Position numbers and translations under genes: made by a program | Shown here: piece by piece, positions 32 through 51,554 of the stretch | How the letters are laid out: each line of letters starts with the position of its first letter | How positions within the stretch are numbered: the stretch's first letter is position 1 | From: a virus | Taxonomy: Duplodnaviria; Heunggongvirae; Uroviricota; Caudoviricetes | Length of the DNA: 51,554 nt | IMG/VR virus record: IMGVR_UViG_2531839664_000034 | Direction: 5' to 3' (one strand) | Notes under the pieces: generated by a model | Database searches by the model: none | Told to the model about the DNA's origin: nothing | What the model saw: the letters and a program-made list of their open reading frames with translations, nothing else

Positions 32-60
32 GTAAGCGTAAACTGACCGCCGTATGTAGC
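32..60. repeat. Extra IS66-family terminal-repeat-like sequence (GTAAGCGTAAACTGACC...), not paired with any element end in the window
   Basis: Starts with the GTAAGCG motif shared by the other IS66-type ends in this window (101, 352, and the reverse complements at 3060 and 5259). Confidence 0.3.
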
Positions 61-171
61 CATCAGACGAGAATTGGTAACTTAGACGCCCATCTGATAT
101 GTAAGCGTACAGCCTGAACCGTCTGGTCAGAATCTGACGAATTAGACAAAGTGGTGTCCACCAAATAAGTA

Positions 172-351: not shown

Positions 352-433
352 GTAAGCGCCCCATCTGCGACGTCTTGTGAAAATTGTCCTGTCTGGCAAC
401 AATCGCGCCCATCTATATAGATGGACACGAACG

Positions 434-1108: not shown

Positions 1109-1452
1109 TAACGCTGCCAACCGGTACCAGAATCTGGATCATCGCTGGCATCACAGATATGCGTTGTGGCTTCAACGGCCTGGCTTCGAAGGTGCAGAAC
1201 ACGCTGAAAGATGACCCGTTCTCCGGGCATATCTTCGTCTTCCGGGGCCGCAGTGGCAAAATGGTGAAAATACTGTGGGCCGATCGTGACGGGTTATGCC
1301 TGTTCGCCAAACGCCTGGAACGGGGCCGCTTCGTCTGGCCGGTAACCCGGGAAGGGAAAGTGCACCTGACGCCAGCTCAGTTATCCATGCTACTGGAGGG
1401 GATCGCGTGGCAACATCCCAAACGGACAGAACGGCCTGGCATCCGGATATAA
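1105..1452 (+). CDS. tnpB: IS66-family TnpB (orfB)
   Basis: 115 aa, MITLPTGTRIWIIAGITDMRCGFNGLA...; overlaps orfA stop (ATGA); canonical IS66 orfB size and sequence. Confidence 0.85.
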   Translation: MITLPTGTRIWIIAGITDMRCGFNGLASKVQNTLKDDPFSGHIFVFRGRSGKMVKILWADRDGLCLFAKRLERGRFVWPVTREGKVHLTPAQLSMLLEGIAWQHPKRTERPGIRI

Positions 1453-1471
1453 CCCGTGATAAAACAGGGGA

Positions 1472-3028: not shown

Positions 3029-3060
3029 TTTTTACCCCACGTCCTTCACGGTGCGCTTAC

Positions 3061-3290
3061 AATGGCGACAACAATGGCGCGAGGGAAAGCTGCTATTACC
3101 TTCTTCAGAGAGCCCCCAGCTACTTCCTGTGACTCTCGATGCAGCTGCCGAACAGCCAGAATCGCTCGCAGAGGACCCGGAAACCCTCAGTATCAGCTGT
3201 GAGGTAACGTTCCGGCACGGGACGCTCCGCTTCAATGGCAATGTCAGCGAAAAGCTCCTGACTCTGCTGATACAGGAACTGAAGCGATGA
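3061..3290 (+). pseudogene. IS66 TnpA (orfA) of element B, C-terminal fragment
   Basis: Reading 349-351 (cga) directly into 3069 onward gives ...LFKWR-QQWREGKLLLPSSE...LLIQELKR in one frame, matching ORF 3051..3290. Confidence 0.7.
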
Positions 3291-3634
3291 TCCCGTTACC
3301 TTCCGGGACCAAAATTTGGCTGGTTGCCGGTATCACCGATATGAGAAATGGCTTCAACGGCCTGGCTGCGAAAGTACAGACGGCGCTGAAAGACGATCCC
3401 ATGTCCGGCCATGTTTTCATTTTCCGGGGCCGCAGCGGCAGTCAGGTTAAACTGCTGTGGTCCACCGGTGACGGACTGTGCCTCCTGACCAAACGGCTGG
3501 AGCGTGGGCGCTTCGCCTGGCCGTCAGCCCGTGATGGCAAAGTATTCCTTACACAGGCGCAGCTGGCGATGCTGCTGGAAGGTATCGACTGGCGACAGCC
3601 TAAGCGGCTGCTGACCTCCCTGACCATGCTGTAA
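3287..3634 (+). CDS. tnpB: IS66-family TnpB (orfB), element B
   Basis: 115 aa [27 protein letters not shown]..., paralogous to 1105..1452. Confidence 0.85.
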
Positions 3635-3683
3635 ATCTCTTTATCCTGGTTGTCACAGAATAAGCCCGGTAAAATACGGGCTT

Positions 3684-5222
3684 ATGAACGACATCTCTTC
3701 TGACGACATCTTCCTGCTGAAACAGCGCCTGGCCGAACAGGAAGCGCTGATCCACGCCCTGCAGGAAAAGCTGAACAACCGGGAGCGCGAAATAGACCAT
3801 CTGCAGGCGCAGCTGGATAAACTCCGCCGGATGAACTTCGGCAGTCGTTCCGAAAAAGTCTCCCGCCGTATCGCACAAATGGAAGCCGATCTGAACCGGC
3901 TTCAGAAAGAGAGCGATACGCTGACTGGTAGGGTGTATGACCCGGCAGTACAGCGTCCGTTGCGTCAGACCCGCCCCCGTAAGCCGTTCCCTGAATCACT
4001 ACCCCGTGACGAAAAGCGACTGTTGCCTGCGGCGCCGTGCTGCCCGAACTGCGGCGGTTCACTGAGCTATCTGGGCGAGGATACCGCCGAACAGCTGGAG
4101 TTGATGCGTAGCGCCTTCCGGGTTATCCGGACGGTACGGGAAAAACATGCCTGTACTCAGTGCGATGCCATCGTGCAGGCACCTGCACCTTCGCGGCCCA
4201 TCGAGCGGGGTATCGCCGGACCGGGGCTGCTGGCCCGCGTGCTGACCTCGAAGTATGCAGAGCACACCCCGCTGTATCGCCAGTCAGAAATATACGGCCG
4301 GCAAGGTGTGGAGCTGAGCCGTTCACTGCTGTCGGGCTGGGTGGATGCATGCTGCCGGCTGCTGTCTCCGCTGGAAGAGGCGCTTCATGGCTATGTCATG
4401 ACTGACGGCAAACTCCATGCCGATGATACCCCGGTCCAGGTACTGCTGCCGGGTAATAAGAAGACGAAGACCGGGCGGTTGTGGGCGTATGTTCGTGATG
4501 ACCGCAATGCCGGGTCAGCGTTGGCACCTGCAGTGAGGTTCGCTTACAGCCCGGACAGAAAAGGCATCCATCCGCAGACTCATCTTGCCTGCTTCAGCGG
4601 TGTGCTGCAAGCGGATGCGTACGCCGGGTTCAACGAGCTGTATCGCAATGGTGGGATAACGGAAGCTGCCTGCTGGGCTCATGCCCGCCGAAAGATCCAC
4701 GATGTGCACGTCCGCATCCCGTCAGCACTGACGGAAGAAGCCCTGGAGCAGATCGGTCAGTTGTACGCCATAGAGGCGGATATAAGGGGAATGCCGGCAG
4801 AGCAGCGGCTTGCTGAACGTCAGCGAAAAACGAAACCGCTGTTGAAATCCCTGGAAAGCTGGTTGCGTGAAAAGATGAAGACCCTGTCGCGACACTCAGA
4901 GTTGGCGAAGGCGTTCGCGTACGCACTTAACCAGTGGCCGGCACTGACGTACTATGCGAACGATGGCTGGGTGGAAATCGACAACAACATCGCTGAAAAT
5001 GCCCTGCGGGCGGTCAGTCTGGGTCGTAAAAACTTCCTGTTCTTCGGCTCTGACCATGGTGGTGAGCGGGGAGCGCTAGTGTACAGCCTGATCGGGACGT
5101 GCAAACTGAATGACGTGGATCCAGAAAGCTACCTTCGCCATGTGCCTGGCGTCATAGCAGACTGGCCGGTCAACCGGGTCAGCGAACTGCTTCCGTGGCG
5201 CATAGCACTGCCAGCTGAATAA
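3684..5222 (+). CDS. tnpC: IS66-family transposase TnpC, element B
   Basis: 512 aa; same architecture as 1472..3028 (CCPNCGG...CTQCD zinc finger, [14 protein letters not shown]). Confidence 0.85.
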
Positions 5223-5261
5223 CACATCCCCGTCAATACGGTTCTTGCTGCACGCTTACCA

Positions 5262-5477
5262 ACAAACCGGCCCACACCAGAAGCGATTATGGCAAACTAC
5301 CAACTGAATGAACAATTACTGGAGGGATGCAGGCCCTGGATTGTTATTTTTGATGACGTTCTTACTGCCGGTAGCCATTTTAAAGCGATGAAAAGCCTGA
5401 TACTACAACATATTCCTGAAGCCTGTATACTGGGACTCTTTGTTGCCCGAACAACCCGGGGAGCTCAAATTATTTAA
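5262..5477 (+). pseudogene. C-terminal fragment of a phosphoribosyltransferase (PRTase)-fold protein, 5-prime end removed by IS66 element B
   Basis: Open frame runs from the IS66 boundary (5259) without a plausible N-terminus; PRTase signature hydrophobic-DD-V-x-T-x-G (WIVIFDDVLTAGSHF) near the C-terminus. Confidence 0.4.
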
Positions 5478-5494
5478 AAAGGGTAAAGTACTCC

Positions 5495-7879
5495 TTAAAA
5501 TGAAAGCCCTTCACCATCAGCCACAATCCTGTACCCCATCGCCTTATAACCCCGCTGGCGTTTATCCCACATTCTGAGCAGCACTGGATACGCGGTATCC
5601 ACAAAATCAATGATCCTGACATCGCTTTTACCGGTATGCTCTCTGTGTAGACGTCCCGCATACTGCTGTAATGTCCCTTTCCATGACACAGGCATGGCAA
5701 GAATCAGCGTATCCAGCGGAGGGTGGTCAAATCCCTCACCAATAAGTCTGCCTGTTGACAACAAAATACGGGGAGAATCAGGAGGAAGAGCATTCAGCCC
5801 GGATATCAGCATCGCACGCTTTTTTTTCGATAGTCGTCCATGGAGAATAAAGGGGGACAATTTCAGTGAATTCATCACTGATGCTATCTCATCCAGATGA
5901 TCTGTACGTTCAGTCAGTACCAGAACTTTTCGCCCCTGCCCGAAAGCTTTCATGGCTTCTTCAGCTATCGCCACCGTTCTGTCATGATCCAGAGCAATTT
6001 CTCTGAAAATATCCTGGATTCTCGCATCCGATGGTAAATGACCAGATGTAAAACGGGAACGGGTCAGTACCTCCAGATTATGTGGGCTTTCCTTCGGGCG
6101 GACCGCTGTATGGCGAATGGCACCACAGTACATAAAAATAATGGGATGCAGACCATCCCGTCGGATTGGTGTTGCCGTCAGGCCAAGCAGATATCTGGCA
6201 TTCGTTTCCTTCAGAATCGCAGAAAATGAAACCGCGCCAATATGATGGCACTCATCCACAATGATTTGCCCATAATTCCTGACCAGAGGTTCAACTTCTC
6301 CGTGTCTGGATATGGACTGCACCACCGCAATATCAATATTGCCACAGGGTTTATGTTTACCTCCCCCGATAATACCAATATTGTCACCAACCTGCAGAAA
6401 CACCGCGAGACGCTCCTGCCACTGCTTCAGCAATTCAGTCCGGTGTACCAGTATCAGTGTATTCACTTTCCGTCTGGCAATCACTGCCGCTGCGGTAACT
6501 GTCTTACCAAAAGCCGTTGGCGCACAAAGCACACCAGTGTCATAACGGAGTAATCCCGAAACGGCCTCTTCCTGCTCCGCTCTGAGGTTTCCCATAAAAA
6601 CGGCATTACATTCCGTCCCGGCAAATCGTTTATCGATTAATTCTGCAGCAATATTGTTGTCCCTAAGGAAAGATAATACGCTGTCCAGACATCCCTGGGG
6701 CAACGCAATGTGTTGCGGGTAATTCTCCGCACAACCTATAACACGGGGCTTATTCCAGACTGACATACGCATTGCCTGAGCCTTATAAAACTCAGGGTTC
6801 GGAAATGCTGCCAGCCGAATAAGTCGGTTAATCAGCACCTGAGGTAATTGCGCTTTTTCGAAATAGATCTGGTTTGCCAGCGTGATTTTCAGCGGTTCTG
6901 CAATAGAAATATTCAGTCTGTTTCCTGATGATTTTTTCCCTTCCCATGGCGTACCCAGGTCTTCTTCGTTGATAAAGTTCACATCCAGAGGATGGATACT
7001 TCCTGTAGCCCGTAATATCGTCGGTTCAATATTCTGCACATTCATCGGGATCACCGATGCAAGAAAAGCCCATTGATCAGAATAAGGCTGGAAATTCATA
7101 TCAACAAAAACACTTCCCCCCGATTCACGCGGTCTTTTTTGCAGAGGTAATGCTATGAGATTACCAAATCCCCCTTTTGGCATCGTATCCTGATTAGGAA
7201 ATAATCGGTCATAAGAACCCAATCGCAGCTGTCGAGTTCGATTACACGTATAACTAATAATAGCAGTCCCCAGACGGCGAGCTTCGCGGGCCGAAACTCG
7301 TGAAGCAAAAAATATCCAGACATGCGCTCCCTGACGTGAACGGGATATTTCCAGCGCAGCGGGTACACCCAGCTCATCACAGGATCGCATGAATGCGGAT
7401 GCATCCTTCTGCCATTCAGCTTCATCAAAATCAACTGCCAGAAAATAACAGGAATCATCTTCCAGCAACGGATACATCCCGACAGTATGGGTACCTGCCA
7501 GATGGTAGTAGATGACGAGATCAGATACAGGAATCAACTGACGGTGAGCGCAGTCCCCACATTTTATCCGGGGCTTACCGCATATTCTCGCCTGCCATTC
7601 GTTAGCGCAGGCAGGAGAGTACCCTGATTTGCCGCTGGTTTTACTTTCCCATCTAAGTGCCCATACATCATCACGCCCGCGAAACAACCGACGAAATAAT
7701 GCAACCTTCTCATTGGTGGATAATACAGAAACGCGCTGCACAGAGATCGGCGGTTTACGTCGCCATTCAATCCCATGAGCTTCAAGTAATGAGACCAGAC
7801 GGGCATTTTCTGCCCTCAATGCAGCTAATTCATCGCTGTCAGATTTATGAACCATATTCGTTACCTGTATCCGATCCAC
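5495..7879 (-). CDS. Primase-like (AEP/PrimPol-like) N-terminal domain fused to SF2 DEAD/DEAH-type helicase
   Basis: Helicase motifs APTAFGKT (I), IIVDECHH (II), GLTATP (III), QQYAGRLHR (VI); N-terminal Cys cluster (CGKPRIKCGDCAH) and AEP-like motifs LAVDFDEAEW and GAHVWIFF. Track start 7879 is GTG; ATG at 7855 (MVHKSDSD) has a better Shine-Dalgarno. Confidence 0.6.
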   Translation of the reverse strand: MDRIQVTNMVHKSDSDELAALRAENARLVSLLEAHGIEWRRKPPISVQRVSVLSTNEKVALFRRLFRGRDDVWALRWESKTSGKSGYSPACANEWQARICGKPRIKCGDCAHRQLIPVSDLVIYYHLAGTHTVGMYPLLEDDSCYFLAVDFDEAEWQKDASAFMRSCDELGVPAALEISRSRQGAHVWIFFASRVSAREARRLGTAIISYTCNRTRQLRLGSYDRLFPNQDTMPKGGFGNLIALPLQKRPRESGGSVFVDMNFQPYSDQWAFLASVIPMNVQNIEPTILRATGSIHPLDVNFINEEDLGTPWEGKKSSGNRLNISIAEPLKITLANQIYFEKAQLPQVLINRLIRLAAFPNPEFYKAQAMRMSVWNKPRVIGCAENYPQHIALPQGCLDSVLSFLRDNNIAAELIDKRFAGTECNAVFMGNLRAEQEEAVSGLLRYDTGVLCAPTAFGKTVTAAAVIARRKVNTLILVHRTELLKQWQERLAVFLQVGDNIGIIGGGKHKPCGNIDIAVVQSISRHGEVEPLVRNYGQIIVDECHHIGAVSFSAILKETNARYLLGLTATPIRRDGLHPIIFMYCGAIRHTAVRPKESPHNLEVLTRSRFTSGHLPSDARIQDIFREIALDHDRTVAIAEEAMKAFGQGRKVLVLTERTDHLDEIASVMNSLKLSPFILHGRLSKKKRAMLISGLNALPPDSPRILLSTGRLIGEGFDHPPLDTLILAMPVSWKGTLQQYAGRLHREHTGKSDVRIIDFVDTAYPVLLRMWDKRQRGYKAMGYRIVADGEGLSF

Positions 7880-8009
7880 TGAGGCACCACGGCAGAAATT
7901 CGGGTCCCCTACACTGATGACAAAGCGCCCCGCCCTCTTCTGCCTATTAACTCAAGCACCTCCCAACAACTTACAGAAACTTAATTCTAATACCTAATAC
8001 AACTGTAAT

Positions 8010-8573
8010 TCAGTTATGTCGTGGTCGGCCCCGGTTGCTTTTTTCGGGAAGCCTGCTACGGCCCAGAATAATACCGTGTTCTTTCTGATCCTGTTTAGCC
8101 AGATAGCTAAGGGCGTAACGTAAGTTGTCTACCGCGGACTTATCACTATAGTGCATCACGTGATCGATACGCACCGGGTATTTGTCTTTAGCCCTGCACA
8201 GGTGAAAATAACCCTCCCCTTCCGTGATCCGCCTCCAGATATCTCCTAGTTGCCTGGATATCTGATAAGATTTCTTGTGACGTTGCCCATCCAGGTAGCC
8301 GACAAAATGAATATGAAGCCCTTTGTCTGGTGTATATTCCATTACCCAGTAATATCCCGCCAGCATCGTCTGGGTTTCGCTAAGTAAACGGTATATTTCC
8401 ATACACATACTGTGCCTACAGGAATGACCAAAACTGGGCGAGTCTTTCCTGTAGGCAAAATCAATTCTGAAAGGTAACAGTTTAGAAAAACGTTGAAACA
8501 TACCGTCCATGTGTTCATTCACGTCTTTCAGAATCATGAAATCCATTTTGTAATTGGGATTGGCATTATACAT
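8010..8573 (-). CDS. YagK/YfjJ-family (inovirus Gp2-like) protein typical of P4/CP4-57-like islands
   Basis: 187 aa; resembles the remembered YfjJ family (e.g. YPVRIDHVMHYSD region) and sits in the yfjI-yfjJ order of CP4-57-like elements. Confidence 0.5.
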   Translation of the reverse strand: MYNANPNYKMDFMILKDVNEHMDGMFQRFSKLLPFRIDFAYRKDSPSFGHSCRHSMCMEIYRLLSETQTMLAGYYWVMEYTPDKGLHIHFVGYLDGQRHKKSYQISRQLGDIWRRITEGEGYFHLCRAKDKYPVRIDHVMHYSDKSAVDNLRYALSYLAKQDQKEHGIILGRSRLPEKSNRGRPRHN

Positions 8574-9585
8574 TTTATAGTCCTTACTTTATAAAACTCA
8601 CAGGAAGAGAGAATTACGTAAATACTGAGAGTAGAGAAACGCCGTACCACGGCATTAATAAACGAAGTAAACCAGCAGCACAGACAACCTGATAAAACTG
8701 TTTTGTATTACCGCATTACTGTAATGAGGTAATACTTCAGAATACAGTGAGACTCTCTTAAACTGAGAACCAGTACGAATTACAATGGAAAAACACACCT
8801 CATAGAATTGAGTTTCAGGAAGCACCACTAAATTCTTTACAGGAAGTAATCTGACATTCACAAAAGTCAGCTATAGAATAGCCACAGACAACATCGCTAT
8901 TAATATTGTCGTACCATTAAGTGAAAACAGCGACTCTGCAGAGAGCAGCCTACAGATATTTAATCAGTAGCATAAAAGAATAATGACATACAGACCATAC
9001 GCTACACACCATAAAAAGATTGTTTCATACAAAAAAGATAATATTTACCCATGCTTATAAACTGTAACGGAGCTATAACGTACGAACTAAAGACAATATA
9101 CTCTAATAGTGTGCTGGTACGTAACCAGTGTTAAATGCAAACCAGACATACATTCAGCGGATTAACTTTCTCAATATTACGCTATGAGTGTAGTAACATA
9201 ATTTACACATAACTAAACTCCATACACCACCACACTGTAGTATATGGGGATAGACGCATTACGCACATACAGAATACTCAGCATAAAGAGGAGTGACATT
9301 ACGATAAAAAGAGACAACATAACAGATAACATAACTTCCACTAATAATACTAATTAACCTTAATTATTTATTGAATACGAAAACAATGAAGTGCCCTCCT
9401 TATCTAAGGCCAAAGCCAGCAATATCCTGTACAACACTCTATCCAATAGTAAATAGTAGTTACACCAGTTATATTTACTGACTGACCTGTACCAGAGTTC
9501 TGTAATACAACACTGACATGGTCATGGCATTAATCTCCTCCGCAAGTAACGGAGGAGACTATATGTTACTCAACGATTAAGTCGT

Positions 9586-11019
9586 TCAGAGGTCAAAGTT
9601 AGGTGCGACACACAACGTTTTTCCCTCAATAACCGGTACAACTCTGTTTTGTTCATACAGTAAATCCAGTAACCAGTTGATTTTATCCTTTTTCCGGAAA
9701 CGGTTCGGACCACGCTGTAAAATGTCATTTTTTTTCATACAGAGGATCCCCTTCTCAATGCAATAGCTTTTTATCCAGTTGAAAAGTTCAAGCTCCTCTG
9801 GAATGAGTCGCACAGGTACGGTCAGAGCAGTGTTGTCAAAAGTTAACGGATTAGACAACCGCATATACTCATTACCGTACCATATTGCTAATTCTCTCGC
9901 CATTTCTGCAGTGTAAGGGGAAATCTCCCCCTCTTCACCGCTCGAATGGTAAATAAGTCCTGCCAGTCTTGCCATATACTCTGCATTTTTGGCAGCATAT
10001 TCCCGACAATGTCTTAAAGGCCCCAATCCCCCCAGTTTCGATTCCACATCGTTGTAATAATCCGTCCAGATTCTGGCAGCCTGAGGAGAAAAGTGAAGGC
10101 AACGTCGTTCACCACTCATCGCCAGACTTTCATCAATAAGTTCATTGATCCTCTTATCAAATAACTCCTGATACTGTGATGAATAATTATCTCCGGTTAT
10201 TATCCTTGTCCCCTGCATTGATGTTGGTTGACACATCAAAAACCTTGCATGATGTCCTGACGTTTTCACAAGTTCTTTTTTTCGCGTACAAAAACCTTTG
10301 TGGTAAACATCAGGCTGAATCATCGCCGACATCGTCAGTCTTGGCTCCTTCAAATTAATTCCGGGAGATGATTTCCTGTCGATGAAAAGAGAACCTCCAT
10401 CCCACAAAGTGTTAATAATTCCCAGTTTACTCATGGCCCGGCTGTCAAAAATTACTCCCCCTTCACTGGATACAAGAGCAAAAGAACGATTGCTATCGGA
10501 GTAATATTTTAACATTCCCTCTATCGTTGTATCATTAAAAATTGTTCGACGTATCTGCGGCGGAACAGGAGAGTTATTCAGATGCGTTTCAAGCTCTGAT
10601 TCTGTTGCCTTGTAATCTTTACCGGCACGAATCTCTTTATGAAATTTTGATTCCAGCGCTTTTTGTTTTTGCTCCCATATTTCCTTTTCTGTACTGTAAT
10701 TCTCAACCAGTTTCGCGTATTCTTCCGCCAGGGCTTCATCCCTGAGATAAAATGCTTTCATAAACACTTTATCCACGGTCGTTTTCCTTTCACCGGAATC
10801 AGCCAGAATCAGAGAGTAAATATTAACGGGCCCACGTAAATTTCCAGGTCTGCACACGTCAATCTGATTCTGACAGGCAATTGACATCGCTGTTAATGCG
10901 GATGTCGCCACCATAGCCAAAGGAGCCTGTGTATTTTGTTGAGTTTCAATTATTGCATTTCTCACCAGCGGTGGTAGTGCATATATCGGATAAGGATTTT
11001 CTGGTGCTAGTAAGCACAT
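9586..11019 (-). CDS. YfjI-like (DUF3987-type) island protein
   Basis: 477 aa; size, position next to AlpA-like gene and remembered similarity to CP4-57 YfjI; function unknown. Confidence 0.5.
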   Translation of the reverse strand: MCLLAPENPYPIYALPPLVRNAIIETQQNTQAPLAMVATSALTAMSIACQNQIDVCRPGNLRGPVNIYSLILADSGERKTTVDKVFMKAFYLRDEALAEEYAKLVENYSTEKEIWEQKQKALESKFHKEIRAGKDYKATESELETHLNNSPVPPQIRRTIFNDTTIEGMLKYYSDSNRSFALVSSEGGVIFDSRAMSKLGIINTLWDGGSLFIDRKSSPGINLKEPRLTMSAMIQPDVYHKGFCTRKKELVKTSGHHARFLMCQPTSMQGTRIITGDNYSSQYQELFDKRINELIDESLAMSGERRCLHFSPQAARIWTDYYNDVESKLGGLGPLRHCREYAAKNAEYMARLAGLIYHSSGEEGEISPYTAEMARELAIWYGNEYMRLSNPLTFDNTALTVPVRLIPEELELFNWIKSYCIEKGILCMKKNDILQRGPNRFRKKDKINWLLDLLYEQNRVVPVIEGKTLCVAPNFDL

Positions 11020-11114
11020 AAAGCCTCCATTTTCATTAATGGGTTAGTAAAGTTGCAGCAATTTCCGCTACAATAGCGAAAATAGCTGCTATTCAGACTG
11101 AAAATACAAACAGT

Positions 11115-11342
11115 TCATCTGGTCTGAATCCACCAGAGAAGGTCACTTAGTAACCAGCCACAAGATTTCTTTCCGATAGTCTTACGCGGTGGGTAGTTTC
11201 CCTCTCGTTCAAGTTTCCAGGCTTGTGAACGGGAAATTGAGGTGATCTCTTTTCGTTCCTTTTCACGTACCAGTCTGTCACCCTCAGTCCCATAGGCTTT
11301 CAAAATTACTGAACGTTGCTCATCTGTTAATGGAACCCACAT
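11115..11342 (-). CDS. AlpA-family small HTH regulator
   Basis: 75 aa with C-terminal ...YPPRKTIGKKSCGWLLSDLLWWIQ pattern resembling AlpA/phage transcriptional regulator. Confidence 0.45.
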   Translation of the reverse strand: MWVPLTDEQRSVILKAYGTEGDRLVREKERKEITSISRSQAWKLEREGNYPPRKTIGKKSCGWLLSDLLWWIQTR

Positions 11343-11978
11343 GACGGCCCTCCTGATATATCAATGATTCTTATCTCAGTTGTGAGCATGAAATGACTGA
11401 ATTTCCTGGACAATCCATAGTGGAGATTCCGTTGTCATATTGCTCACAGAACACCCATGGACAGCAAGGTACATACGAAAACAAATCAAGTCAAGTTAAG
11501 GCAAGTAAAACAATACTTGACTCACAAGTCCACTCATAGGTCAATATGTGTTGATTAGCAACAAAACAACCAATAATGCACATTACAAACAATGATTTTA
11601 AGCCAAGAAGTGGTTTTCACTGTTGACAATGACACAAAATGAATCTAGTATCGACTTCATGTTATGCTCAGATAAACTTCTGACAGTGATAGTAAAGAAG
11701 AGAAGGAGGGGGTTAAATTTGTGACAAAGATCACAAAAATAAATTAATTTTTACTATTCACAATAGGAGGGAAAGAGAGCCAGGCATTTTACCTGTCATT
11801 GAAATGACAACAACAGCTTCAACAGATCGGAATATTCAGGAGGAGGAAGAAGAAGGAGATCTGACGGGTGTTATAATTGTTACAACACGCTGGAGGAAAA
11901 TTATCGTAATAATAGATGCATTCTCAGGTATACCCTGTATCACCCCGAAAACACGGCAGGCATCCGTTTTATTAGTAG

Positions 11979-13685
11979 ATGCAGACTCAGTATCAACGTA
12001 TCCTTTCAGGAGATAACATCGATTTTAACTGCCAGTATCCGGTATGCGGCAAAAGGAAACCTTCTTACATAATGGTAAATCAGACTATGCAACAAAATCA
12101 GTACTATCGTATTTTATCCGGAGAATCCCGCCCATTCCCTGGCATATATGAGGCTGTTTCCGAACAACTCCTTTTGCTCATTTTTAAGGCACGTCAGCTA
12201 TATCAGGATCCAGAATATCGCCCCTGGTTTGAAGAACAGCACAAAGTTCTCTTGGCATTGCGTGATAATACAGAGCTCCAGAAAATTTTTAACAAACAAA
12301 GAAAAGAAAATTTTGCTCTTGGCGCATCTACATCGTCTCAACCCACTGCTCTTACTAATGCGCTTAATGTTATGTGCCATTTATACAATGGCTTTGATGA
12401 AGGAAATATCAGCCTGAAAAGCTGGGGAGCGATGCAAGAGGTACAGACAACACCAGACTTTTTCAGCCTGGGACCAAGAACCTGGAAAACACCTGAACTG
12501 GCAAAGTTTGTAGGAGATGATTTATTTAATATTCTGACTGAATGTAAAGCCTGGAGTTCACCAATTCCAGCAGAAGCCCGGCAGGGGTATTGCCATCAGG
12601 ATCTGTCTGTTGCGCACTCCTGCACCTCAGAGTTGCTGGCACACCTGAAGCAGTATCATGAAATAGATGAATCAACAATACTTGCCATAACCATTGGTCT
12701 GGCGGTCAACGAATTCTACCAGTATAAGCAAAATATTCCAGAATGGCTTTCCTGTTTTGAGAATAAGAACAAATGGCCCTGGGACTGCAGGAAGTCAGAT
12801 ACTGAAGATGTGCACAGACTGAGAGAACGACTATCGATAATCGGATGTACAGAATTCGTAAAAAATATGTTCTCAGTCGCCAGTCAGCATGAAATAAAGA
12901 CAATGTACAATATTTATGTCCATATTTATGCAGCTGAAATCTGCGGTTGGGTAAAAACAAGCATGGCATATTTTAAACCAACAGATTTCATCCAGTACAC
13001 ATGGAAATTCGCAACAGTTACTCCGGATAAAGATGAAAAAACCGAGAATACGACCGCATGGGAAAGGGATTATTGTCAGATAACCATACAACGAGATGAA
13101 CTCCTTAGATTGATTCGCACTAATACTCTGCAGGATGCAGCAATTCATCTTTCAGGCTGCCTGCAATATGCATATCTGGAGTCTGTAAAGAATGATATTG
13201 ACTATCCTGGAATAGCCCCTAATGCTGAAGAAAAGAAAATGAAATACACAGATTCTATTGAATTTTCTGGAATTAGGAATAACATCATAAATGCAGTAAA
13301 ACGGCTGGAATCATTTGAAAAATGGTATGAAACTAATAAAGTTTTGTTGGTAAGTAATAAAACAATACGAACAGAGAAGATTGACGTTGTTGTACGACTT
13401 GCGGGACTGAAAGCCTATGATTTGCAGGAAGGGGTTCCTGATGGTCTGAAATGGAAAGTTAAAGATGGCATAAATGAACGCATCAAAACCGATACCAGTT
13501 TATGCCTGCCTCAGGATATCAGTGATACATCGCTAAACCGTTATCGTCACGCTGTGACGCGCATTGTCAACGACGAAATCGACACATTACTGATGGAACA
13601 GAAGAAAAAAAATAAAAGATTCCCCTACAGCAAAGATCGACATGCGATCCAACCTTTATGGAGCAAATGCGTGATCGAGCAGTAG
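11979..13685 (+). CDS. Hypothetical protein, AT-rich island cargo, no recognisable domain
   Basis: 568-aa ORF, opposite strand to the island backbone, lower GC than neighbours; start uncertain (internal ATGs at 12070, 12088). Confidence 0.5.
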   Translation: MQTQYQRILSGDNIDFNCQYPVCGKRKPSYIMVNQTMQQNQYYRILSGESRPFPGIYEAVSEQLLLLIFKARQLYQDPEYRPWFEEQHKVLLALRDNTELQKIFNKQRKENFALGASTSSQPTALTNALNVMCHLYNGFDEGNISLKSWGAMQEVQTTPDFFSLGPRTWKTPELAKFVGDDLFNILTECKAWSSPIPAEARQGYCHQDLSVAHSCTSELLAHLKQYHEIDESTILAITIGLAVNEFYQYKQNIPEWLSCFENKNKWPWDCRKSDTEDVHRLRERLSIIGCTEFVKNMFSVASQHEIKTMYNIYVHIYAAEICGWVKTSMAYFKPTDFIQYTWKFATVTPDKDEKTENTTAWERDYCQITIQRDELLRLIRTNTLQDAAIHLSGCLQYAYLESVKNDIDYPGIAPNAEEKKMKYTDSIEFSGIRNNIINAVKRLESFEKWYETNKVLLVSNKTIRTEKIDVVVRLAGLKAYDLQEGVPDGLKWKVKDGINERIKTDTSLCLPQDISDTSLNRYRHAVTRIVNDEIDTLLMEQKKKNKRFPYSKDRHAIQPLWSKCVIEQ

Positions 13686-13777
13686 AGTTCTGAGGGGATA
13701 ACCGAGCTGTTATCCCCCGTTTATTCTGCCAACTCTCAGGTCTGTCAGAGTTCCAAGAATACGATGCGGCTGGCAAA

Positions 13778-14374
13778 TTATGCGGCTTTTCCATTAACAG
13801 ATTCGGCCACAAGAACAACACCGTGTTTATTTCGATCAGGATGTTCACTCCAGATTTCTGATTCAGGAATACTTTCCCCGTCATAGCAGATCCGATCGCC
13901 ATCAAACGGATAATACCGTGCGGAATCAGTATCTAAAATAAACACTTTCAGATTCGTTGAACGACGCGCTATATGCTGCCAGAGGGCTTTACCTCCTTCA
14001 TATTGCTCGTTATCACTTAATAGTATAACGCCCGCTTTTGTGGCTACCGTTTCATATACAAACGTCGCAAGGCCAACATCACGTACAGCCCCATCAACAA
14101 CAATCCCTTCAATCTGAGCGACGTCCTGCTCTTCCCAGAATTTCCGGACAAACACCCCTTCAAGCTGTGAGCGACGCTGAAGCTCCAGAGTGGCAACAAC
14201 TTTATGGCGAATATCACCATCAATAACAGAAGGTGCAGCTTCGATTACCGCAGCGAACGGAGTCTTTGGATCCCAGATGATCTGGTAAAGCACGCCCTGA
14301 ATAGTTACTCCATCCAGTATCGAAAAACGACGAGCTACAGTAGCAGGGGAGTAAGACATTGGAATTACAGCCAT
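13778..14374 (-). CDS. Hypothetical protein downstream of integrase
   Basis: ORF 13778..14404; ATG at 14374 (MAVIPMSYS) preceded by GAGGGG Shine-Dalgarno; no recognised motif. Confidence 0.5.
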   Translation of the reverse strand: MAVIPMSYSPATVARRFSILDGVTIQGVLYQIIWDPKTPFAAVIEAAPSVIDGDIRHKVVATLELQRRSQLEGVFVRKFWEEQDVAQIEGIVVDGAVRDVGLATFVYETVATKAGVILLSDNEQYEGGKALWQHIARRSTNLKVFILDTDSARYYPFDGDRICYDGESIPESEIWSEHPDRNKHGVVLVAESVNGKAA

Positions 14375-14503
14375 TTTTGAATCCCCTCTGAGTAATACAG
14401 GCACAAAAATTTACCTCAATAATTATAGTAAACAATACAAGAACTAGGTGCATCAACAATACCCATCAATTGTACGCAATTCGTACAGTAACCAGGAACT
14501 CCC

Positions 14504-15820
14504 TCACCTTCTGCCAAACAGATTGACAACATTATTGCCTGTTTGCTGTTGATAGTTATTAACCCGATCCTCCCAGATCTCAAGTGCTCTGCGTTTTTCT
14601 GGCAAATAATCGTATCGATCATAATGTTTTGAACTGACATCGTTCAACGCATGATTTTGAATACGATCGCGGATTTCCTTACTGATTCCAGCTTCTCCCA
14701 TTAACGTTTTACAGGTCCGACGTAAGTCACGTGCTGTAAAAATTTTAAAGTCAGGATTACAAGCCCGGAAATACATGATAGCGCGAGCCAGACTGTCCGT
14801 ACGAACCGGACGCTTACCATTAGTCGAAAGCGGGAAAATGTAAGGGCTCGATTTTTCTTTTGTTAACTCCTGCACACAGGCTAATTCCTGTAATGCTGAT
14901 TCAGTCAACGGTATCAAATGCTCTCGTTTATTTTTAGAGACATCCGCAGTCACCAGCAGCGTTTTTTGCTGAAAATCAACATCACACCACTGACTGGCGA
15001 TCATTTCAAAGGGACGTTGCCCTCCGGTATAGATACAGAATCGAATCAAATGTTGCATCAATAATCCAACGTTGGTTGCTTCAGCAAAATGTTCCATTAG
15101 AAAACGCAACTCTTCGAGTGTCAGCCAGGTGTCACCGACTTTTTCTGCAGATGACTGTTTCGGTATCACTGATACAGGATTGGCCTCCAGCCCAAAACTA
15201 ATCCCTACACTTGTGTTCATCGGATCGTTATCAGCTTTCAGACCATAGTTAAATGCAGCCATCAGGTAAGAACGGATCCGGTTAGAGTGAACCACAGCAC
15301 CGCGCTGAATGATCCCGGCCAAGATATGTTTAATCTGTCCGGAAGTCACATCTTTAGCTTTAGTCTCACGGGGGATCACTGTATAGCATTCATTTTCAAG
15401 GCGTTTCAGAACATCCTGCCATGTTCTCTTATTATCAATTTTCATTTTGTTAACATAACCATGAATCAATGCTTCAAATGAACCCTGTGATTGATGGAGT
15501 TGTCTCCGCTGCTGTTCTGCAAGCTGTTGTCGCTCCAGTTCTGTCTGGGGATCCTTTCCTTCAATGAGCCAGGCACCATACTTTTTTGCCAGTTCGTTCG
15601 CTGTGGCCAGTTTCATCTCAGGCCATATACCCAATTGAATGAATCTTTCTTTTGTCCCTTTTTCCACGTAATAGCGGAAATAGAAAATTTTGCTGCCAGA
15701 AGACTGAACTTTGACGCCAAGTCGTCCAGTGCCACGTTGAGAGCTATTGCTCCAGACATAGAACGATGTCTTTTTTGCTTTTAATGCTCGAATAGCTGTT
15801 TCAGTTAGATTGACGGCCAT
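14504..15820 (-). CDS. int: P4-type tyrosine integrase
   Basis: 438 aa; N-terminal arm-binding-like region, C-terminal catalytic region with conserved R...HxxR...Y spacing (e.g. HDLRRTCKTLM); lies about 200 bp from a tRNA 3-prime fragment. Confidence 0.85.
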   Translation of the reverse strand: MAVNLTETAIRALKAKKTSFYVWSNSSQRGTGRLGVKVQSSGSKIFYFRYYVEKGTKERFIQLGIWPEMKLATANELAKKYGAWLIEGKDPQTELERQQLAEQQRRQLHQSQGSFEALIHGYVNKMKIDNKRTWQDVLKRLENECYTVIPRETKAKDVTSGQIKHILAGIIQRGAVVHSNRIRSYLMAAFNYGLKADNDPMNTSVGISFGLEANPVSVIPKQSSAEKVGDTWLTLEELRFLMEHFAEATNVGLLMQHLIRFCIYTGGQRPFEMIASQWCDVDFQQKTLLVTADVSKNKREHLIPLTESALQELACVQELTKEKSSPYIFPLSTNGKRPVRTDSLARAIMYFRACNPDFKIFTARDLRRTCKTLMGEAGISKEIRDRIQNHALNDVSSKHYDRYDYLPEKRRALEIWEDRVNNYQQQTGNNVVNLFGRR

Positions 15821-16016
15821 AGAACCTCTTTTCTAAATCAGTAACAATCAAAATAACTCGTAAATTTGGGTCAGGTAATGGGTCAGGTAACGATCGTACA
15901 ATGGAGAAAAAACGGAACCAAGCGGAAACAGAAGAAATTACATAATTAGTTGATTATAAACAATTAATAAAACAATTACGAACAAACCAAAACAATACAG
16001 AATGGACTTGCCTCAT

Positions 16017-16063
16017 GACTCATAATCGCTTGGTCGCTGGTTCAAGTCCAGCAAGGGCCACCA
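16017..16063 (+). tRNA. 3-prime 47-nt fragment of a CAU-anticodon tRNA (tRNA-Ile2/Met-like); probable att core, not an intact gene
   Basis: GACTCATAATCGCTTGGTCGCTGGTTCAAGTCCAGCAAGGGCCACCA: anticodon loop CTCATAA, T-arm GCTGG-TTCAAGT-CCAGC, acceptor 3-prime strand and CCA; no matching 5-prime acceptor strand (GGCCCTT) upstream. Confidence 0.6.
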
Positions 16064-16818
16064 AATCATCATTCATGTATCAGGAAGAGTTAAGGGTACA
16101 AGGGGTACTCGATGGCGGTCTATATTTCATGACTAACGCCATTTCAAGGAAGAAGTGCGGTGGGTGGTTTCGAATGAGGGCTGGTGTTTTGGTACGTGGC
16201 ACGCCACTGCAATGTATTTATTCATCAGTACTCATTCAAAAGTACCTGGAAAAAATGCCCGCTATGCCAAGCGGGCAAATTGCTTACATGTGGAATTAAG
16301 TAATTAACGATAAAGCCAGAGTATTATCATTTATCATGCCTCTTCATTTAATCAGGTTAATTACTCAAATCACTGAACTATTCTCTGTTCGCTCACTGAT
16401 GATAAGTGAGTGTCACAACCACGATTTGTATGCGGGCCAATGCCGTAGAGTAAGGATGAAATGTCTCTGCCACGCCTTAAACATCTACTACTGACCAGAA
16501 TACCCGTCGCAGGCAGATGAGTCTTGTGAGCGTTACAGGAGTCTGGCTTTGCTCATTAATCAACGCTATTTAGATATAAATTTCTAACACTCGAAAAACG
16601 AATTTCACTAATAAATTATAACGGGTGGTTTTTATCATACAGCGAAATAACTTTTTGTTTATTAAATTTAACATTCTTGTGCTAATTTAATTAAAAGTTC
16701 CATGCGTAGCATGTGAAGCAGTTAATGTTAGTAATCGTCTCAAATGAGCGATTTTTTATAGTGACAAACAGTAATAACGTTAAAAATAGCCATGTAGACA
16801 ATAACTGAGGAATAGGCA

Positions 16819-43485: not shown

Positions 43486-43878
43486 CCGGAAAAAGGAAAG
43501 TTTGAGAAACGCGATCTGGCACAGGCGGTTATTAATGCTGCCTACCTGGTGGCCTGTGCAGATGGTGAATGTGAGGCTTCCTAGAAAGCGAAGATCGAAC
43601 AGGTACTGCGTAATCAGCCTGCGCTGTCCGCGTTTACGTCAGAAATTAATGCGATTAGCGCAACCATTATCGGTCAGCTGGATACGAACTTTAAAATTGG
43701 TCGTCGTGCGGCGTTACGTGAGATCGAGGATGTGAAACACGATACGCGTGAAGCGGAAGATGTGCTGGATGTGGCGGTGGCCATTGCGGAGGCAGACGGC
43801 GAAATTGAGCCGGAAGAGCGCAAGGTGCTGGAAGAGATTGCCGGTGTTCTGGGTCTTCGTCTGGAGAATCACCTGTGA
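43486..43878 (+). pseudogene. TerB-like (tellurite-resistance TerB fold) gene remnant with in-frame TAG at 43582-43584 and no start codon
   Basis: Frame reads ...AVINAAYLVACADGECEAS*KAKIEQ...VAVAIAEADGEIEPEERKVLEEIAGVLGL, TerB-like ADGE...EE repeats; the ORF-track frames here (43382..43735, 43748..44035) are not the coding frame. Confidence 0.4.
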
Positions 43879-47150: not shown

Positions 47151-47200
47151 AGACTTAATATATCCAGGGATGTGAAATCGATAAACCCTGATAAATATCC

Positions 47201-47734
47201 ATGAACGCAAAAATCAGATACGGCCTGTCGGCTGCCGTTCTGGCGCTGATTGGTGCAGGGGCGTCTGCGCCTGAAATCCTCGACCAGTTTCTTGACGAAA
47301 AAGAAGGTAACCACACCACGGCATACCGTGATGGTGCGGGTATCTGGACCATCTGCCGCGGTGCCATCCTGGTGGATGGTAAACCTGTCGTCCCGGGCAT
47401 GAAGTTGTCGAAGGAAAAATGCGACCAGGTTAACGCCATTGAACGTGATAAGGCGCTGGCATGGGTGGAGAAAAACATCAGAGTGCCACTGACCGAACCC
47501 CAGAAAGCGGGGATTGCGTCATTCTGTCCGTACAACATTGGCCCCGGTAAGTGTTTCCCGTCGACGTTTTACAGACGGATTAATGCTGGTGACCGCAGGG
47601 GAGCATGCGAGGCGATTCGCTGGTGGATTAAGGACGGTGGCAGAGACTGCCGTATTCGCTCAAACAACTGCTACGGTCAGGTCTCACGGCGTGACCAGGA
47701 GAGCGCGCTGGCGTGCTGGGGAATTGACAGATAA
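47201..47734 (+). CDS. SAR-type endolysin (lysozyme R, GH24-like)
   Basis: N-terminal signal-anchor-release segment (LSAAVLALIGAGASA) and lysozyme core; recalled as near-identical to R of 933W-type phages. Confidence 0.8.
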   Translation: MNAKIRYGLSAAVLALIGAGASAPEILDQFLDEKEGNHTTAYRDGAGIWTICRGAILVDGKPVVPGMKLSKEKCDQVNAIERDKALAWVEKNIRVPLTEPQKAGIASFCPYNIGPGKCFPSTFYRRINAGDRRGACEAIRWWIKDGGRDCRIRSNNCYGQVSRRDQESALACWGIDR

Positions 47735-48031
47735 GCAGAATATTTTGCTGAAAAATGCGGTTTGCTCACACGGGCGGATAACACGAAATCCTGCGAACTG
47801 GCAAAAACTAAGTGAATAAAAGTAAAACCCCGTTTGTTGGCCGCAAGCGGGGTTTTGTGTTTCCTGACTCCGGAAAAGTCAAAGGAGAAAGTGTGTTTGA
47901 TTTTAGCAAACTGATTCGGGAGATTCGAATGATGGCTGAAAAATTATCCACCTGGAAGTTCATCCTTATCTGGCTGGTGTTTGTGATTATGGCTTCCGGT
48001 TATTTCATTGGTCAGATACGCTGGTGGTGAA

Positions 48032-48526
48032 ATGAACCGCGTACTGTGCGTGGTCATCATTGCCCTGCTGGTGGCCTGTGGTGCGCTTAGTCTGGGGCTG
48101 AATCATTACCGTGATAACGCCATAACCTACAAAGAGCAGCGCGATAAAAAAGTCAGTGAGCTGGAGCTGGCAAATGCAACCATTACTGATATGCAGCAGC
48201 GCCAGCGTGATGTTGCTGCACTTGATGCCAGATACTCGAGGGAATTAGCCGATGCGAGAGCTGAAAATGAAACTCTGCGCGCTGATGTTGCCGCTGGTCG
48301 TAAGCGCCTGCGGATCAACGCCACCTGCCCCGGTACCGTGCGTGAAGCCACCGGCACCTCCGGCGTGGATAATGCAACCGGCCCCCGACTGGCAGACACC
48401 GCTGAACGGGATTATTTCATCCTCAGAGAACGATTGATGACAATGCAGAAGCAGGTGGAAGGGGCACAGGACTATATCCGCACTCAGTGTACTAAGCAGG
48501 CTTTTTATTATCCGGAGGATGTATGA
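48032..48526 (+). CDS. i-spanin Rz
   Basis: N-terminal TMD (VLCVVIIALLVACGALSL) then coiled coil ...NHYRDNAITYKEQRDK...; ATG at 48032 within track ORF 48008..48526. Confidence 0.7.
   Translation: MNRVLCVVIIALLVACGALSLGLNHYRDNAITYKEQRDKKVSELELANATITDMQQRQRDVAALDARYSRELADARAENETLRADVAAGRKRLRINATCPGTVREATGTSGVDNATGPRLADTAERDYFILRERLMTMQKQVEGAQDYIRTQCTKQAFYYPEDV
48267..48437 (+). CDS. o-spanin Rz1 (lipoprotein) embedded in Rz in +1 frame
   Basis: MKLCALMLPLVVSACGS lipobox LVVSAC followed by proline-rich segment; lies fully inside Rz. Confidence 0.6.
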   Translation: MKLCALMLPLVVSACGSTPPAPVPCVKPPAPPAWIMQPAPDWQTPLNGIISSSEND

Positions 48527-48747
48527 AGAAATTACAGGTAACGGTAAAACCTTTTCAGGGAACAATTCCGTTCCGTGTTTTGCAACATGGCCGTGTTCTG
48601 CTTGAAGAGGTGTTCAGAGGTAAATGCACTGAATGTTATTCACGAACATATGAAGTGAATGCCACGCATGAAGAATTCACCGTTGAGTGCGTGATGAATA
48701 CTGATAAATGCCGAATGGTATCCGCTGAATTACAGCCAGTGTGTTGA
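48523..48747 (+). CDS. Small Cys-rich hypothetical protein after Rz
   Basis: 74-aa ORF coupled to Rz stop (ATGA overlap); contains CTEC and ECVMNTDKC clusters. Confidence 0.35.
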   Translation: MKKLQVTVKPFQGTIPFRVLQHGRVLLEEVFRGKCTECYSRTYEVNATHEEFTVECVMNTDKCRMVSAELQPVC

Positions 48748-49115
48748 GCGACCTTATTATCCATGCGCGGTATTGTCGCCGTATTCCTGCATTAACAGAG
48801 ACCGCAGCCCGACAGGGAGACTCCTCTGCGAGAGTGTGCGGGGATAATCAAAAACGATACACACCGGGGTTTACCGCGTAAACGGAGCGCGGCGTTCTCC
48901 CCTCATGGTCGCCCATCCGGTGCGATGGTGGAAGAAACTGGAATCTGTTCAATAAAAAAACTGCCGTGTTGGAGTCACAGCAGTAATGTACTGATTGGGT
49001 AGAAGATTATTTTTGTTATGCTTTATTTTTATTCTATATGGCTGATTACTTCAATTCGGAACTAATACAGCTAATGTCTGTGATTTTTTATAAATTCAGC
49101 AATATAAAGAAATAG

Positions 49116-49343
49116 TTATATGAACAGCCATCGCAGAGCATACTGTGTATCATTCTTTTTTATAGTCAACTGACGGGCATATTTTATGTCTGCTGCCAGC
49201 TCCCGGCGGCAAGATTCAATGACCCACGCAGAAAAATTTTCTGAACCTTTCTGGTCAAGAGCGATGTTAATTTGTTCAATCATCTGGTTTGGAAATCGGA
49301 TGTTGCGGGTTGTTGTTCTGCGGGTCCGGTTTTTCGATGACAT
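49116..49343 (-). CDS. Small ribbon-helix-helix-like protein (YlcI/YnfO-like position)
   Basis: 75 aa, basic N-terminus; same position and strand as small RHH genes between lysis and terminase genes in DLP12-like prophages. Confidence 0.3.
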   Translation of the reverse strand: MSSKNRTRRTTTRNIRFPNQMIEQINIALDQKGSENFSAWVIESCRRELAADIKYARQLTIKKNDTQYALRWLFI

Positions 49344-49384
49344 TTTCTTTCCTCTGGTGACAAGTTATATGGCGAGGATTTTAC

Positions 49385-49846
49385 ATGGCTGTGCTTCGTA
49401 CGTTACCGGGCAGAATCAAAACTCTGAACACCCGGCGGGTGAATGTTCTGAAGGGTGAACAGCGTCGGGTCAGTGGTAGTGCCCGGGTTTCCCTCAAGCG
49501 CCGTATCTGGCTCAGGGATGCCGGACAGTGCTGTCTCTGTGGGCGTGTGGTTGACCTTTGTGACAGTGAACTCGATCACCGAATTGCACTTCAGTTCGGT
49601 GGTGGTAATGAGGAGACGAATCTCTGGACGCTCTGTACCGAATGCCATCGCCAGAAGTCAGTCAGTGAAACGGCGAGTGGTATGCCGGACCCGACGCTGC
49701 CGGAGGTCATGGCAGGGCAGACGATATCATCGGACTGTGACCCGCCCCGGGGGGGGATCATCCGGCGAAAAAAACGATCGCCCCGGACACCGCCCCCCGT
49801 CTCATGCAGAGAAAAAATTCCTGTTTCAGGCCAGTTAACATGTTAA
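49385..49846 (+). CDS. Phage HNH endonuclease (packaging-associated); C-terminal 40-50 codons doubtful
   Basis: CCLCGR...DHRIALQFGGGNEETNLWTLCTECHRQK is a canonical HNH motif; proline/arginine-rich tail looks like read-through. Confidence 0.6.
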   Translation: MAVLRTLPGRIKTLNTRRVNVLKGEQRRVSGSARVSLKRRIWLRDAGQCCLCGRVVDLCDSELDHRIALQFGGGNEETNLWTLCTECHRQKSVSETASGMPDPTLPEVMAGQTISSDCDPPRGGIIRRKKRSPRTPPPVSCREKIPVSGQLTC

Positions 49847-49966
49847 CTGGCTGCCCGGGCATTTTTTCGGTTTTTATCTTTATTATTCAGTTTGTTGTGC
49901 GAAAAAAATGTTAACTGGCTTTTTCAGCAAATGTTAACCAGGCAGCAGTTAACATTTGCGGCATGA
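49831..49966. repeat. Cluster of GTTAAC-containing palindromic repeats upstream of terminase small subunit (cos/pac-like region)
   Basis: CCAGTTAACATGTTAACTGG (49831-49850), ATGTTAACTGGC (49918-49929), AATGTTAACCAGGCAGCAGTTAACATT (49940-49966). Confidence 0.4.
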
Positions 49967-50029
49967 GACGCCGGGAAAAATGGGCTGAACCATACCCGGC
50001 TGAGTGCGTTATGGACCCGGGAGGAGGCT

Positions 50030-50593
50030 GTGCTGACAACGCAAAAACGAAAATTTGCGCTGGCGCTCATGTCCGGGAAAAACAAAACAGCGTCAGCCAT
50101 TGCCGCCGGTTATTCGGCGAAGACCGCCAGGGTTAAAGGCTCGCAGCTGGCAAAAGATCCGGAGGTGCTCGCGTTTATAGCCCGTAAACAGTGCGAAACG
50201 GTGGAGGTGGATGAGGTTCCTGTTTACCGGCAGAAAAAATCAGAGCAGGAGGATAAACCCCGTCGCCGTGAGGTGGCTGCAATACCACAGCCGGACGAAA
50301 ACAATCCGGAGATGCCACCGCCCGCGGTGATGTCTCATGGTATTGAATATATGGAGGATGGTCTTCCCGATCCGGTGAAAGCTATGGGGCAGATCCTGGT
50401 GGAAAACCTCAGCATTGATCCGAAACTGGCACTGGATGCGGCCTGGCGACTGGCGCAGTTCACACACCATAAAAAAGGCGATGCCGGTAAAAAATCGGCA
50501 AAAGGTGATGCCGCGAAAAAAGCGGCTAACCGTTTTGCGGTACCACCACCACCACGACTGGTGGTGAATAACGATAATGAGGGCAACGGATGA
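50030..50593 (+). CDS. Terminase small subunit
   Basis: 187 aa with N-terminal HTH-like region (ALALMSGKNKTASAIAAGYSAKTARVKGSQL) and basic C-terminus; directly upstream of terminase large subunit. Confidence 0.6.
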   Translation: MLTTQKRKFALALMSGKNKTASAIAAGYSAKTARVKGSQLAKDPEVLAFIARKQCETVEVDEVPVYRQKKSEQEDKPRRREVAAIPQPDENNPEMPPPAVMSHGIEYMEDGLPDPVKAMGQILVENLSIDPKLALDAAWRLAQFTHHKKGDAGKKSAKGDAAKKAANRFAVPPPPRLVVNNDNEGNG

Positions 50594-51554
50594 TACCTGT
50601 ATGGAGCACGGCCTGCCCGGACTGGGCAGAGCGCCTGAAAAAGGGGCTGTCGATTATTCCGGCTCCGATTTATCCGGACCAGGCCGCACATGCCCTGGCG
50701 ATTTTTAAACAACTGCGGATTGTGGATGCACCGGGTAGCCCGACGTTCGGGGAGTCCTGTGCACAGTGGGTGTTTGACCTGGTGGCGGCTCTGTTTGGCT
50801 CCTACGATGCGCAGACCGGTGTCCGCCATATCAAGGAAGTGTTCATTCTGATACCCAAAAAAACAGCAAGTCCACACTGGCCGCCGGGATCATGATGACG
50901 GCGCTGTTACTGAACTGGCGGCAGGCGGCGGGTTACACGATTCTGGCCCCGACTGTGGAGGTGGCAGCCAACGCCTTCAATCCTGCCAGGGATATGGTAC
51001 GACGGGACGATGATCTGGATGACCTCTGTCAGGTGCAGACACATATCCGGACCATCACCCACCGGGTGACGGACACCACCCTGAAGGTGGTGGCAGCCGA
51101 TCCGAATACGGTGTCCGGTATCAAGTCCGTGGGGACGCTGATTGATGAGTTGTGGCTGTTTGGCAAGCAGTACAAGGCGGAGGACATGTTACGTGAAGCC
51201 ATCGGCGGGCTTGCCTCCCGCCCGGAAGGGTTTGTGGTGTATACGACCACCCAGTCGAATGAACCGCCAGCCGGGGTGTTCAGACAGAAACTGCAGTACG
51301 CCCGGGATGTGCGCGACGGCAAAATTAATGATCCGCACTTTCTGCCGGTGATATTTGAACACCCTCCTGAAATGGTGGAAAGCGGGGCTCACCTGCTGAT
51401 GGAAAACCTCGCCATGGTCAATCCGAATCTCGGCTATTCAGTGGATGAGGCCTTTCTGTACCGGGAGTACCGTAAAGCCCGGGAAGCCGGGGAAGAGACA
51501 TTCCGGGGGTTCATGTCAAAACACGCCAATGTGGAAATTGGTCTTGCCCTGCGC
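50590..51554 (+). pseudogene. Terminase large subunit, partial (runs off window end), frameshifted in an A7 tract at 50857-50863
   Basis: Frame 1 gives ...IKEVFILIPKK then stops at 50895; the -1 frame from the A-run reads NSKSTLAAGIMMTALLLNWRQAAGYTILAPT... open to the window end; one extra A restores ...IPKKNSKSTLAAG... Confidence 0.7.

Follow-up and report, generated by a model that had tools for sequence, protein, structure and literature searches.

The large terminase subunit gene (terL) of a prophage in Escherichia coli O121:H19 strain 5.0959 is divided between two reading frames at a run of seven adenines (A7), which most likely represents a homopolymer-length miscall in the draft consensus of this strain, the true state being A8. 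The run lies in a stretch of 51,554 nucleotides, analysed here as a whole and referred to as the window. The prophage is lambdoid, defective and effector-carrying, and its terL encodes an HK97-type large terminase, intact as 553 aa with A8; we propose that one A was dropped from the consensus, which would split the gene on paper only. The break is thus most probably a feature of the deposited record that is absent from the organism. The analysis establishes the anatomy of the break, its source contig, the A8 of all sister copies compared and how poor the consensus is locally, and from there we infer A8 in the reads or in the organism. A first-pass annotation had left two alternatives, a homopolymer sequencing error and real pseudogenisation; the former is favoured and the latter disfavoured, A7 being private to one draft of 2011.

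Anatomy of the break and identity of the gene

The A7 homopolymer occupies exactly 50857..50863 on the plus strand, in the context ATACCC-A7-CAGCAAG, with CCC on its 5' and C on its 3' side. The upstream terL piece, an ORF at 50590..50895 (+), encodes 101 aa with the C-terminal end EVFILIPKKTASPHWPPGS before the stop, i.e. 91 native N-terminal residues followed by 10 out-of-frame ones (TASPHWPPGS). The frame starting from 50592, -1 relative to the upstream ORF, reads KNSKSTLAAGIMMT and has no stop between 50862 and 51554 (+), the last position of the window; this downstream piece starts in the Walker A motif (NSKST) and has its first ATG at 50892. Codons begin at 50857, 50860 and 50863 in the upstream frame and at 50862 in the downstream one, and the switch is accordingly -1. 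Codon positions and translations therefore bear out the earlier claim that the run splits the terminase by a -1 switch, and the expectation that A8 would give one protein also held, the A8 orthologues encoding a single, uninterrupted 553-aa TerL that reads ILIPKKNSKSTLAAGIMMT. With the consensus one A short, the gene falls into two, the 101-aa product and a remainder of approx. 452 aa; the run is 693 nt away from the contig end. Runs of this length are not enriched in the window (36 A7/T7 matches observed vs 26.1 ± 6.9 expected): the A-run alone is within chance, and the site derives its meaning from the interruption of a conserved reading frame.

The A8-restored protein is identical to WP_001399696.1, annotated as 'terminase large subunit' in complete O121 genomes. 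It matches the Pfam families TerL_ATPase (PF03354, E = 2.2e-11) and TerL_nuclease (PF20441, E = 1.5e-9) and so carries both domains of an HK97-type TerL; the sequence of the nuclease part, located past the end of the window, was taken from the identical orthologue. The sole solved relative found by sequence search was the HK97 large terminase, PDB 6Z6D (E = 1.3e-9, residues 85-534 aligned). In this comparison FILIPKKNSKSTLAAGI aligned with ILSIARKNGKTGLIAGI at the Walker A P-loop, PKKNSKST of the restored protein facing ARKNGKTG of 6Z6D, and it is this motif that the frame break divides in the window. Since the A-run encodes the KKN of the P-loop (AAA AAA AAC), the break interrupts the ATPase in the loop that binds the nucleotide. 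Taken separately, the 101-aa piece had no Pfam match, and the downstream piece matched TerL_ATPase from profile position 43 onward only, below the curated cutoff.

The window thus lacks the single uninterrupted ORF of a TerL (broken at 50857-50863) but retains synteny with terS and the head genes. The terminase small subunit gene (terS, 50030..50593, +) is intact at 187 aa, carries the annotation WP_000958402.1 and overlaps the terL start with its stop by 4 nt. The HNH endonuclease of the packaging module (49385..49846, +; 153 aa here) has an intact catalytic core and a C-terminal tail altered in the O121 lineage. The occurrence of terS and an HNH endonuclease 5' of terL is the usual arrangement of an HK97-type packaging module. 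The O121 HNH allele has 10 nt fewer than that of phage YYZ-2008, which changes the C-terminal tail, and is labelled 'incomplete' by PGAP; the G-run that follows the catalytic core (49749-49756) is G8 in the window and in 2014C-4423, and G7 in RM8352 and 2015C-3107. An antisense ORF at 50335-50877 had no Pfam match, and a scan for promoters and terminators returned hits at shuffle level.

Source contig, sister copies and consensus quality

Over 4,965 nt (4965/4965, no gaps), the window matches the end of contig AEZX02000027.1 (GCA_000194395.2) at 100% identity; this contig stops 2 nt past the window, inside terL. The assembly AEZX is that of strain 5.0959 (E. coli O121:H19), which the J. Craig Venter Institute (JCVI) sequenced and which was in use by 2012 (PMC3359367); the sequencing platform was not found in the literature, which names only the sequencing centre.

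Nine complete genomes are identical to window positions 50590-51554 except for a one-base gap, each spanning 966 nt vs 965, and A8 was read directly in RM8352 and 2015C-3107. Among the complete O121-type copies, terL is intact with A8 in nine of ten, the tenth (2014C-4423) having A9. O121-type draft contigs carrying the 153-aa HNH protein of the window, taken as representatives of groups with approx. 19 contigs in total, were all A8. The exact 452-aa downstream product occurred in strain 5.0959 only, and the intact 553-aa protein on 816 contigs. The comparison with orthologous terminase genes proposed in the first-pass annotation thus gave A8 for the sister copies of the prophage allele, and in the sequences compared the A7 in this terL allele is private to one assembly, that of strain 5.0959. 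Five contigs with a 451-aa form were considered as further instances of A7 in the same allele and rejected: they represent CC+A8, A10, a 223-nt deletion or a start just past the tract. A chimeric contig was ruled out, as 2015C-3107 is collinear with the whole window.

The left 16 kb of the window (1-16066, vs 16017 onward) is an island that carries an integrase, IS66 elements, YfjI and, at 5495-7879, a 'TOTE conflict system' primase-domain protein. In 2015C-3107 the island adjoins the rest of the window, and in RM8352 approx. 570 kb separate the two. The difference resembles a large rearrangement polymorphism, the sites involved having approx. 50 bp in common (the 3' part of tRNA-Ile); the window itself contains no predicted complete tRNA.

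Differences private to the window were counted against three complete O121 genomes over its 51.5 kb. There were seven, five substitutions (3775, 47172, 49012, 49049 and 49062) and two indels, and five of the seven fall in the terminal 4,383 nt, next to the contig end (binomial P = 8e-5, or P = 5e-3 when the three clustered SNPs are taken as one event). The cluster in these last 4.4 kb consists of the A7 and the four substitutions at 47172..49062, none of which is present in any fetched sister or paralogue locus. Three of them (49012, 49049 and 49062) are intergenic and lie within 51 bp. The 126-bp segment that contains them occurs at 1,113 places across 544 complete genomes, and the best place of each of 545 matching records was 97.6% identical, consistent with these three differences only. 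This suggests a low-quality consensus by the contig end. Recombination as the origin of the clustered SNPs was rejected, no paralogue or complete genome carrying any of them.

Both private indels are one-base contractions of A/T runs of at least seven. The second one affects the programmed-frameshift run of an IS600 copy located at about 27898-29053, which reads A6G in the window (28796..28801, minus strand) and A7G in the three complete O121 genomes. The A6 puts the transposase orfB in the +1 frame, not -1, and the normal -1 shift would therefore be unable to make OrfAB; this is probably another homopolymer undercall.

Another contig of the same assembly, AEZX02000013.1 (12110-20415), repeats window positions 49063-51554 with zero substitutions and also has A7. 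A further 7 bases are missing there from 5 homopolymers, including A6 reduced to A4 twice inside terS, which is broken at 152 aa, and its homopolymer state had no match among complete genomes. Five homopolymer indel events with zero substitutions are unlike real divergence and show that the assembly drops homopolymer bases in exactly this repeated phage DNA. We rejected this contig as an independent call of A7: it has corrupt homopolymers itself, and the 1 kb at its left is without a complete-genome match of at least 99%. The best such match of this first 1 kb was 98.3%, and the contig may be a mosaic or collapsed-repeat consensus.

A miscall is thus favoured because A7 is private to one assembly while the sister genomes agree on A8, because suspect calls cluster significantly by the contig end, because the same assembly undercalls homopolymers in the same sequence, and because the second private indel, in IS600, is of the same type. 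The tract is, moreover, a known trouble spot, read as A7 in JNE132847 and as A9 in 2014C-4423, both assemblies with many other spurious frameshifts. Two marks of an artefact, a state private to one assembly and independent nearby signs of poor consensus, were both found here. The counterpoints are that the tract truly mutates, that the prophage is already defective and that both AEZX contigs read A7.

Variation of the tract and decay of the prophage

The tract-bearing allele was found in 90 of 5,426 complete E. coli genomes, at 125 places, with exact CCC-A8 in 82 of the 90 records; about 97% of the 125 places have the intact length, and of the four places that deviate, two belong to noisy assemblies. 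The only exact CCC-A7 among the complete genomes is that of JNE132847, which was rejected as independent support for A7, given that its HNH, terS, terL, capsid and portal genes are all 'frameshifted', pointing to assembly-wide indel noise. CC+A8 and CC+A9 were absent from the complete genomes searched. CCC-A9 occurred three times, in 2014C-4423, whose assembly shows homopolymer insertions elsewhere and a frameshift in the core gene ygaP, and in the O26-type genomes 2014C-3057 and 03_3469 (L031:3764-5426 and L032:3764-5426). The latter two carry the same prophage with a 'frameshifted' terL and intact HNH, terS and capsid genes. As these are two independent complete genomes with intact neighbours, the +1 expansion is real.

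In draft and metagenome assemblies (MEGAHIT, Logan and NCBI), other prophage backgrounds showed CCC-A7 (loci L007-L009, L011 and L013), CC+A8 (L006, L010, L012 and L016) and A10 (L017), and the 101-aa product was present on 50 contigs. The CC+A8 variant reads ATA CCA AAA AAA ACA, gives the same 101-aa product and forms a canonical A-AAA-AAA heptamer; an intact CC+A9 parent of this state was not found. Other lesions at or near terL in drafts were a deletion of approx. 223 nt in its 5' part (L015) and contigs starting 14 nt past the tract (L018 and L019), and in one group of O121 drafts (L023) TerL is split at residue 384.

Phage YYZ-2008 reads AAGAAAAAC (CCC AAG AAA AAC), the same residues without a long run, and the tract probe matched 125 of 3,001 terL places. 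The uninterrupted run is therefore a minority, non-conserved encoding of KKN. These data can also be read as those of a contingency locus, with the A8 tract switching prophage packaging between on and off by phase variation, an idea prompted by the presence of A7, A8, A9 and A10 among closely related sequences. We give it practically no credence. A contingency locus is a conserved DNA repeat of which the ON and OFF states are both common; here nearly all complete-genome places have the ON length, and most terL alleles are without the tract, which implies no selection to keep the repeat. The A8 tract is a fragile allele, with repeated miscalls as well as repeated true mutations across E. coli genomes, and not a selected repeat.

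That the tract truly mutates bears directly on the second alternative, in which a strain-specific one-base deletion, produced by slipped-strand mispairing in A8, inactivated terL of strain 5.0959 and cut the Walker A lysine and everything downstream of it from the N-terminus, in a prophage already non-inducible. We regard this as unlikely, though deserving serious consideration. Besides the real A9 variants with intact flanking genes, A7, CC+A8 and A10 are all present in short-read-based assemblies; lineage-wide decay of the prophage implies relaxed selection, under which a terL deletion would be neutral; the private SNPs place strain 5.0959 on its own branch; and the other 8-nt A/T runs of the window were called the same as in the references. 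Against it, A7 is confined to one draft and falls within the cluster of private differences by the contig end, where three substitutions are unseen in 1,113 other copies, and the same assembly drops homopolymer bases in the same sequence. Two private homopolymer indels vs roughly three substitution events would, furthermore, be indel-rich for real divergence.

The defects of the prophage were inspected in complete O121 genomes and comprise IS insertions, a truncated replication gene, a missing left arm, a frameshifted Lom-family gene and a tail-fibre gene with a frameshift and an internal stop. The TerB-family gene (43516-43878) has an in-frame TAG at 43582-43584 and is annotated with an 'internal stop' in RM8352, 2014C-4423 and 2015C-3107; its presence in all three complete O121 genomes inspected makes it a real, lineage-wide lesion. 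The first-pass annotation had linked the frame break with this decay. The link did not hold up, as the lesions are common to complete O121 genomes, which mostly retain an intact A8 terL, and lesions shared with such genomes lend no support to one in terL.

The portal gene, outside the window and 3' of terL and the capsid gene, is also labelled 'frameshifted', with an identical extent of 2,585 nt in O121 (L030:4221-6805) and in both O26-type genomes (L031 and L032, from 7639); a conserved feature or a fault of the gene model may account for this better than sporadic decay. Further 3' of the window, the right arm in RM8352 (L030:22256-30335) extends to ssrA and includes nleL, espN and espK, which are type III effector genes, as well as the damaged Lom-family and tail-fibre genes.

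If the A7 were real, the terminase of a dead prophage would have lost its ATPase P-loop, which is a routine event, and no effect on the host or on the prophage-carried effector genes would be expected. In practical terms, the reads should be checked before terL of strain 5.0959 is classed as a pseudogene or cited as a sign of prophage decay, and the same caution in annotation applies to the change in the slippery run of IS600 and to the SNP cluster near the contig end.

Recoding and comparison with known systems

A further possibility is that the two-frame terL is used or tolerated, full-length TerL being obtained from the A7 allele either through a -1 ribosomal frameshift at C-AAA-AAA or through an extra A added when RNA polymerase slips. 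We consider it extremely improbable. As read from the window, a -1 slip at the zero-frame heptamer C-AAA-AAA (50856..50862, +) regenerates the wild-type PKKNSKST exactly, so that a real A7 allele might be leaky. Against this, the RNA downstream offers no convincing stimulatory structure (MFE -38.8 kcal/mol vs -33.2 ± 3.3 for shuffles, z = -1.7; 12 of 200 shuffles were as good as the native sequence), and the closest Shine-Dalgarno-like element, AAGGAAG, lies 19-25 nt upstream. That spacing is too far by comparison with dnaX. TerL is encoded in one frame in functional phages and in nearly all prophages, with KKN as AAG AAA AAC in YYZ-2008. Nor is the two-frame layout conserved, the great majority of complete-genome records having exact A8 and all phage records among the matches listed having the intact length. 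The identical heptamer has been shown to be slippery in E. coli: although non-canonical, in pDEST17 constructs it directs 25-60% -1 frameshifting that does not involve transcriptional slippage, and it rescues one-base deletions there (PMC1851650). Runs of about 9 have been analysed as prone to transcriptional slippage (PMC1088944), and A7 is below this length.

We found nothing that would support the use of programmed recoding here. A broader proposal would take the A7 as real and the 'frameshifted' terminase genes as alive, with wild-type TerL produced by -1 frameshifting on C-AAA-AAA, and would make the CC+A8 alleles (L010 and L016, from other E. coli prophages whose late operons are otherwise intact) recoded, low-expression genes and not pseudogenes; we see only a slight chance that it is correct.

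One close counterpart of the window locus is the terL of complete O121:H19 genomes (e.g. RM8352) that encodes WP_001399696.1, with the same gene order (HNH, terS, terL and capsid) and nucleotides identical over 50590-51554 except in the tract, which is A8 within one 553-aa ORF in these genomes and A7 in the window. The HK97 large terminase (6Z6D) has its P-loop, ARKNGKTG, at the position of the break, but is a distant relative without a homopolymer at this motif. The pDEST17 attB1 site (Belfield et al. 2007, PMC1851650) shares the identical zero-frame heptamer, and there too a -1 shift restores the downstream frame; that result was, however, obtained in the context of an over-expression vector. 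The A9 pseudogenes of the O26-type genomes 2014C-3057 and 03_3469 involve the same gene and the same tract, but are +1 expansions seen in two independent assemblies, unlike the A7 of the window, a contraction without independent support. There is also a likeness with homopolymer consensus errors of draft and long-read assemblies, in which, as here, a one-base change affects the longest A-run of the region, is private and is accompanied by other homopolymer discrepancies; analogous errors are found at this very tract in JNE132847 and 2014C-4423.
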